Source of the DNA: Escherichia coli
GTDB taxonomy: Bacteria > Pseudomonadota > Gammaproteobacteria > Enterobacterales > Enterobacteriaceae
Length of the DNA stretch: 64,000 nucleotides
Assembly: GCF_044647545.1 (NCBI RefSeq)
Contig: NZ_CP172818.1
Strand: one strand, 5' to 3'
Shown: one piece after another, positions 37,623 through 38,782 of the stretch
How the letters are laid out: each line of letters begins with the position of its first letter
How positions within the stretch are numbered: position 1 is the stretch's first letter
The notes under the pieces: model-generated
The model's database searches: none
Told to the model about the DNA's origin: nothing
Seen by the model: the letters and a program-made list of their open reading frames with translations, nothing else
Program-made: the position numbers and the translations under genes

Positions 37623-38782
37623 CTGTTTTATTTATTACGTCGTATCACCACCCTACACTACGCACGCAAAAAAAATATTCCATTTTTGATAAAAAATATA
37701 GAAAAATAAATTTTAAATTTATTAAATTAATTTTTTTTTTTTTAAAAAACAAAATATATAAAAAATTATTTTCTTTATAGAAATTAAAAAAAATTAAACA
37801 TTAAAGGAAAAAATAGAATAAATAAAAAAAAAAAAAATTTTTTTAAAAAATTATAAATATTATATTTTACAATATAACATTATAAAATTCTTTTTAAATC
37901 ATAATAAAAAAAACAAAAACAAAGAATAAAAATAAAAATAAAAAAAGATAATAATGATTATTTTTTATAAACATATGATAAAATGATTAAATTTTAAATA
38001 TTTTAAAAATATAATTATATAAAAAATAAATAAAAAAAAAAAAAATAAAAAAAAAAAAAAAAAAAAAGTTATATTATTTTTATAAAAAAATTATTTAATT
38101 AAACAAAAAAAAAATAAAAAAAGAAAAAATAGATAAAGATAAAGATAAATTAATATAAAAAAAGAAAAAAAAGATAAAATTTGTAACCTAAATTTTATTA
38201 TTTAAAATATTACTAAAAAAGAAAAAGAGAAAAGAAAAAAAAAAAAAGTGAAATGTAGTATATGTAAATAAAAAAAAAAAAAAAAAATTAAAAAAAAAAA
38301 AAAAAAAAAAATAAAAAAAAAAAAAAAAAAAAAAAAAAAAAAAAGAAAAAAGAAAAAAAAAATAAAAAAAAAAAAAAAAAAAAAAAATAATAAATTTTTA
38401 TAAAAAAAAAAAAAGAAATAGAAGAAAAGGAATAAAGAAAAAAAAAAAAAAAAATATAAATATTTTTTTTTTTTTTGTTTTTTGTGTTAGGGTAAATTTA
38501 AAATATAATATAACAAAAAAACTCAAATTTATAATATTATGTGTATATATTTAGTTTAAAGAGTTTTTTAAGAGAAAAGAAAGAAAAGAAAAAAAGAAAA
38601 AATAAATAATGTTTTAAAAATAATTATAACACAAAATAAAAACAAAAAAGTGTTCATGAAGGGAATCGATGTAGAGGATGCACATATAAAAATAAAATTA
38701 AAAATATAACTTTATATATGTTTGTTTTTTTTTCTCAGTTGCGCATCCCAGAGGATAAGAAGGAAGAAGATAAAAGTGGGAG
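37623..38782. other. anomalous low-complexity, extremely A/T-rich block (poly-A dominated), non-coding, not native to this E. coli locus
   Basis: Abrupt composition switch right after the malZ stop; A runs of 22 and 32 nt (38290-38311, 38313-38344); no ORF of 60 aa or more internally; malZ-acpH spacing about 1.16 kb against the few tens of bp I recall; boundaries approximate. Confidence 0.8.

Follow-up and report, generated by a model that had tools for sequence, protein, structure and literature searches.

Which described sequences come closest to a long A-rich tract lying between two ordinary genes of Escherichia coli? Intergenic DNA of Dictyostelium and Plasmodium has very low G+C together with long poly-A and poly-T runs. 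In TR/VR pairs of diversity-generating retroelements, most substitutions involve A in one partner; these retroelements change template-A positions, make no insertions or deletions, work over about 100-150 nt and depend on a nearby reverse transcriptase gene. Genome records also contain reference-guided or badly polished regions, in which errors are limited to sites where sample and reference differ in structure, the reference is kept where the sample is too divergent, the edges of indels are imprecise and novel insertions are poorly rebuilt. With ordinary consensus tools for long reads, insertions usually come out much better than in the block discussed here. Finally, near relatives of the strain considered here carry, between malZ and acpH, a native accessory gene for a hypothetical protein of 481 aa.

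The tract discussed below, hereafter the block, occupies this malZ-acpH interval in a 64,000-nt stretch of E. coli DNA, which was analysed as a whole and is called the window. The block is like Dictyostelium or Plasmodium intergenic DNA in its very low G+C and its long A and T runs; unlike such DNA, it tracks an E. coli gene position by position and has syntenic junctions. It recalls TR/VR pairs by the share of substitutions that involve A, but it extends over 1.1-1.6 kb with hundreds of deletions, differs at T, G and C positions too, and is flanked by malZ and acpH. Reference-guided regions are matched in several ways, since the errors of the window are likewise confined to structural differences between sample and reference, a K-12 sequence is kept at 3727-6500 where the sample diverges, indel edges are imprecise and a novel insertion is poorly rebuilt. 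Two points differ from such regions: the degradation and the A bias of the block exceed what standard tools are known to give, and one large K-12-only insert was removed cleanly. The native accessory gene shares with the block its locus and orientation, is collinear with it over the whole length and is A-rich on the same strand. It has 37% G+C and an ORF, whereas the block, about 30% shorter, contains no ORF and about 11% G+C; the block also lacks the terminator hairpin found upstream of the native gene, and it overruns the stop codon of acpH. Judged from these sequences, the block is almost certainly not biological but a degraded copy of the resident gene, whichever pipeline produced it. The features of the locus are as follows, in coordinates of the window except for the last line.

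35805-37622, + strand: malZ, undamaged and identical in sequence to that of the reference lineage; the exact left edge of the damage is at its stop codon
37623-37673, no strand: damaged native spacer downstream of malZ, from gapped alignment to NZ_CP033850.1
37674-37762, no strand: strongly contracted stretch, about 89 nt standing for about 243 nt of native sequence (terminator hairpin and start of the accessory gene)
37763-37891, + strand: clear remnant of the native 481-aa gene, pairing with L001 2427-2566; most G and C changed to A or T, or dropped
37892-38783, + strand: remainder of the degraded copy, with its poorest part in the middle, from global alignment against permuted controls
38735-39361, - strand: acpH with its stop codon overwritten, from the ORF list, the comparison of junctions and the annotation of NZ_CP033850.1
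NZ_CP033850.1 2771690-2773135 (L001 2310-3755): native accessory gene, 1446 bp, encoding the 481-aa hypothetical protein WP_022645275.1

A preliminary description of the window, made from its letters, had measured the block against E. coli K-12 and had put the malZ-acpH gap of that strain at a few tens of bp. The measured gap is 4 bp, so the premise of a short native spacer holds for K-12 and fails for the lineage of the window, in which the interval is 1652 bp (NZ_CP033850.1) and contains the 481-aa ORF. This lineage is that of E. coli FDAARGOS_497 (NZ_CP033850.1): there are no mismatches to it over the 31 kb from 6501 to 37622, and the 25 kb from 38784 to 64000 differ by one mismatch and two short deletions. 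The right yardstick for the block is the window's own lineage and not K-12. Each of the 20 best-matching records listed has a hypothetical protein annotated at the matching place, and 68 records reach 99% identity or more. Between the same malZ and acpH ends, 1596 nt of native sequence are replaced by 1110 nt in the window; because the interval of the lineage is 1652 bp, the block is shorter than what it replaces. The native interval consists of a 186-nt spacer with a terminator hairpin, the 1446-bp gene and a 20-nt spacer before the acpH stop, and in the 1596 nt, which have 37% G+C, A is the commonest base of the + strand (35%). The encoded protein, WP_022645275.1, is an orphan with a lysine/glutamate-rich repeat region. 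It matches no Pfam or NCBIfam family, and gives a marginal match to the PADLOC 'Peptidase effector' (E 5e-4) in which no stretch passes alone. K-12 lacks this gene wholly, so the malZ-acpH spacer is a variable site.

The composition of the block (37674-38783) is extreme, with A at 61.5%, T at 27.8%, G at 7.6% and C at 3.1%, thus about 11% G+C overall. In windows of 100 nt, a check that had been proposed in the preliminary description, G+C is 0.51-0.59 in malZ, falls to 0.35 at 37600-37699, stays between 0.01 and 0.14 throughout 37700-38599, and then climbs through 0.20 and 0.37 to 0.57 at 38800. The four A homopolymers named earlier are all present and are 18-32 nt long (A21 at 38047-38067, A18 at 38270-38287, A22 at 38290-38311 and A32 at 38313-38344), and the block has another eight A or T runs that are 12 nt or longer. 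Thus, the description of an extremely A/T-rich tract with A bias on the + strand, long A homopolymers and no ORF stands as it was given; the ORF list contains none of 60 aa or more in the block. A tRNA search of the block found none, an Rfam search gave no match at E<=1, and no terminator-like site was found in it. Promoter-like sites number four, compared with 8.4 +/- 3.6 in shuffled sequences, and Tandem Repeats Finder returns low-complexity A-rich rows and nothing else. The block is no functional system, as had already been said of it: scans for ORFs, Rfam families, tRNAs, promoters, terminators and repeats see low complexity alone. The further remark that genes do not explain this part of the window is also upheld, in the sense that it is the sole large such part of the neighbourhood.

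Is the block present anywhere else? Among 5,426 complete E. coli genomes, none covers 80% or more of a query that spans it, and none contains the block or the mosaic gene described below. The low-complexity filter of BLAST masks much of the block, and its absence from these genomes rests partly on spacing and on the annotated gene under the match. E. coli genomes with the same sequence at this locus, which the preliminary description had named as the observation that would overturn its view, are not found among the 5,426. A search of a plasmid collection with the block gave no match, and that of a phage collection gave one weak low-complexity match, to a Staphylococcus phage, which is regarded as accidental. 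GTDB representative genomes and JGI metagenomes do not contain a 38-mer taken from the block.

The two edges of the damage are informative. The genes malZ and acpH are convergent, and the identity of the flanks follows the matching RefSeq annotation. On the left, the first damaged base is the first base past the stop codon of malZ. The pentanucleotide AGCAT is missing directly after the TAA, and single G's are missing at 37645, 37651, 37655 and 37665; over 37623-37673, comparison with NZ_CP033850.1 shows deletions only and no substitutions. The abrupt switch reported after the malZ TAA is thus right in that something changes there, and wrong in its kind, as 37623-37673 is still native spacer and the A/T tract begins at about 37674. 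On the right, the acpH ORF has 208 aa in the window, compared with 193 aa natively, and its 15 extra codons come from the block; acpH is annotated at 582 bp in NZ_CP033850.1. Its last native codon is changed from CTC to CTT, matching neither K-12 (TTA) nor FDAARGOS_497. The 208-aa AcpH product is absent from an index of 153 billion genes.

How closely, then, does the block follow the native sequence? BLASTN at word size 11 gives no significant match between the two, and gapped dynamic-programming alignment was needed. The clearest stretch is 37763-37891, which has a strict local alignment score of 87, while reversed or reverse-complemented controls score 33 or less. Outside this stretch the case for homology comes from gapped global alignment compared with permutation controls, an approach whose scores low-complexity sequence can inflate. 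In these controls segments of 50-200 nt of either partner were permuted; together with reversal, they replaced a local 30-nt shuffle control, which is unfair because shuffles destroy homopolymer runs. The part from 37892 to 38783 has a global score of 266, compared with 83 +/- 16 (maximum 133-149) when segments of the native sequence are permuted, that is a z of 8.5-11; split into three sub-blocks, it gives a z of 2.2-4.7 for each. For the whole block the global score is 405, while the permuted controls have means of 133-207 (maximum 206-324) and the reversed partner gives 134. The leftmost part, 37674-37762, is not significant alone (z 0.8-1.6) and is placed by the 154-nt offset of the adjoining unambiguous segment; in the global alignment its survivors are mainly native A/T-rich words. 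A k-mer chain test, which is free of alignment, is weakly positive at k=7 (z about 3) and not significant at k>=8.

Details of the alignment agree with this picture, although the residue-level pairing in the middle of the block is not to be over-read. The poly-A tracts at 38270-38387 lie opposite native repeats of the GAAAAAATTGCG type, the T run at 38463-38476 lies opposite a T-rich native patch, and the last 140 nt or so of the block resemble a noisy copy of the native 3' end. Local contents of A, T and G+C in the block follow the native profile with r of 0.36-0.50. Damage is anchored at both ends and is worst in the middle. The share of aligned native positions at which the base is kept is 86% for A, 60% for T, 25% for G and 15% for C; of the native G and C, roughly half are lost by deletion and 23% appear as A in the block. 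About 80% of the aligned substitutions have A in the block, and the alignment counts 528 deleted positions, 33 inserted positions and 45 substitutions at which the block has a base other than A. Taken overall, the descent of the block from the resident native sequence is secure. Since the flanks are essentially identical to NZ_CP033850.1, natural divergence within this 1.6-kb island is not credible. A diversity-generating retroelement was considered and rejected in view of the deleted and inserted positions, the non-A substitutions, the presence of a single copy and the lack of an ORF of at least 60 aa inside; neither a second copy nor a reverse transcriptase is seen. Hypermutation of the deaminase type was also set aside: it would raise T as much as A, while T stays at 28% without rising and half of the G and C are deleted.

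The block is not the only anomaly that is private to the window. The others are listed here.

2112: deletion of 15 nt relative to FDAARGOS_497, at the first base past the tauD stop; the spacer of K-12 differs here and is longer
3727-6500: K-12 patch of 2.8 kb within an ehaB of the FDAARGOS_497 type, with no differences from MG1655 yaiT::IS3; IS3 at about 5095-6352
45394: deletion of TAAA relative to FDAARGOS_497, at the first base past the yajD stop; K-12 is longer here by about 130 nt
52446: deletion of AC relative to FDAARGOS_497, 12 nt beyond the start of yajO; K-12 is longer here by about 125 nt

The K-12 inserts at 2112, 45394 and 52446 are of the REP type and measure about 65-140 nt each. 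At 3727-6500 the ehaB allele of the lineage cannot be aligned to the window. The left joint of the K-12 patch has a 1-nt slip, with an extra base at 3725/3726 that leads to a stop after 30 codons, and its right crossover has only about 12 shared bases. Such a mosaic of ehaB and yaiT::IS3 exists in no complete E. coli genome, the best full-length match being 97.5%, and the deletions at 2112 and 45394 occur in none of the 5,426 complete genomes. Five of the six large structural differences between K-12 and FDAARGOS_497 carry an anomaly private to the window, and no private indel is found elsewhere. The sixth is at about 24474 in the mak-araJ spacer, where a 102-nt tandem REP-like duplication of K-12 is absent from FDAARGOS_497 and from the window, and no private error accompanies it. 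Because the private anomalies coincide with structural differences between K-12 and the lineage, the damage to the block belongs to a set of defects tied to K-12. A natural origin of the small deletions was considered and rejected, as the two that were tested occur in none of the 5,426 genomes and one SNP separates the window from its relative in 56 kb. Five natural structural changes, all at sites defined by a third genome and accompanied by one SNP in 56 kb, are very unlikely. The SNP itself lies at 56626 in thiI, where the window has T and FDAARGOS_497 has C (CTG to TTG, synonymous-looking), and it is the sole point difference in 56 kb. It is not a leftover K-12 base, since K-12 has C as FDAARGOS_497 does, and is thus a private change.

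How can an ordinary gene come to be written in this form? The block is probably a reconstruction artefact of the sequence record, a reading that includes a conventional origin in read consensus or assembly and that draws on the alignments above. More specifically, the record may rest on a K-12-type backbone, or on steps guided by K-12, in which single-base differences would have been corrected to those of the sampled strain. Inserts found only in K-12 would then have been excised with imprecise edges, and the divergent ehaB segment would have been left as K-12 reference. The 1.65-kb insertion, which has no K-12 counterpart, would have been reconstructed, between two anchored ends, from noisy copies in poor register. 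Where copies are out of register, each consensus position may regress to the locally commonest base, here A, so that poly-A and occasionally poly-T would result. The 1.6-kb stretch would thus have gone through a noisy channel in which A and T are kept, G and C are dropped or overwritten, and the length is cut by about 30%.

This out-of-register consensus is plausible rather than demonstrated. A toy simulation, in which noisy copies of the native insert, anchored at both ends, were merged by plurality without alignment, gave 49% A and about 20% G+C, with 7-17% G+C in the interior, A/T runs of 20-66 nt, and ends better preserved than the middle. It did not reproduce the 30% contraction or the G+C of about 11%, and it gave runs of G and C near the ends that are absent from the block. 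The error-free handling of the 102-nt K-12 insert at about 24474 also counts against the K-12 backbone, which we hold as a tentative mechanism, with a little less than an even chance of being the right one. The suggestion made earlier, that the tract is an assembly artefact or computer-generated filler, was essentially right, with the addition that the block is a degraded native copy. It is most likely that the real chromosome carries here the native sequence of its near-identical relatives.

Could the window, or part of it, have been made or altered by a computer, either by a generative or infilling model that partly reproduced the resident gene and collapsed into poly-A or by filler that was planted? 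Sequence models typically degenerate into homopolymers. In three cases, at tauD, malZ and yajD, the damage starts at the first base past a stop codon, and all the anomalies lie at population-level branch points between K-12-type genomes and this lineage; in addition, neither the block nor the 208-aa AcpH turned up in the collections searched. Free generation, however, is hard to reconcile with 56 kb of flanks that represent one natural lineage with a single mismatch. Over 1.1 kb the block keeps its register with the native sequence, which it meets again within a few bases at acpH, so that it looks like a transformation of the true sequence and not like free generation from left to right; collinearity with the native gene would not be expected of arbitrary filler. 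We thus regard a computer origin as unlikely, while it remains the strongest of the competitors to an artefact of reconstruction.

Less probable again is that one very poor long read, or junk from a base-caller, bridged a gap in a polished de novo hybrid assembly. Errors dominated by deletions near the left junction, contraction by about 30%, ends that are better than the middle, and a polished quality in the rest of the window all speak for such a read. It leaves unexplained, however, the 100% K-12 patch in ehaB and the placement of every small private deletion at a structural difference from K-12. The level of error and the A bias are also above those of ordinary raw reads, and a gene with 37% G+C presents no obvious gap for short reads.

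That the block is physically present in the cell is scarcely credible, in either of two forms. Real foreign A/T-rich DNA, from a eukaryote or another source, inserted or joined chimerically, would fit the composition and the poly-A tracts, which resemble intergenic DNA of Dictyostelium or Plasmodium, and the block had indeed been called compositionally foreign or chimeric at first. This view has to be given up for a sequence that is collinear with, and partly homologous to, the native sequence it displaces: a stretch of 129 nt has a local score 2.6 times that of the best control, both junctions are syntenic, which for a chimera would take two independent mis-joins at one locus, the left edge consists of native spacer that lacks single bases and shows no clean breakpoint, and the block has no plasmid match and a single weak low-complexity phage match. 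An in-cell process that stripped G and C from the resident gene and left the flanking 56 kb unchanged would be in line with the descent seen in the alignment, and the 80% or so of substitutions to A loosely recall base-specific mutagenesis, but mutation is not elevated at all in the flanks, small and unrelated anomalies tied to the structure of K-12 occur in the same window, and we know of no mechanism that deletes half of the G and C and turns the rest mainly to A on one strand.

What does such a block mean for those who study E. coli genomes? The defects linked to it, namely the K-12 patch in ehaB, the three small deletions at REP-type sites and the lost stop codon of acpH, would mislead annotation and comparison of this genome. 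If the block were physically real after all, it would point to an unknown and targeted process that strips G and C. As biology, the locus offers no new element, no transfer from a eukaryote and no hidden system. A striking island of composition may turn out to be an ordinary gene in corrupted form, and what is decisive in recognizing it is the nearest relative, not K-12.
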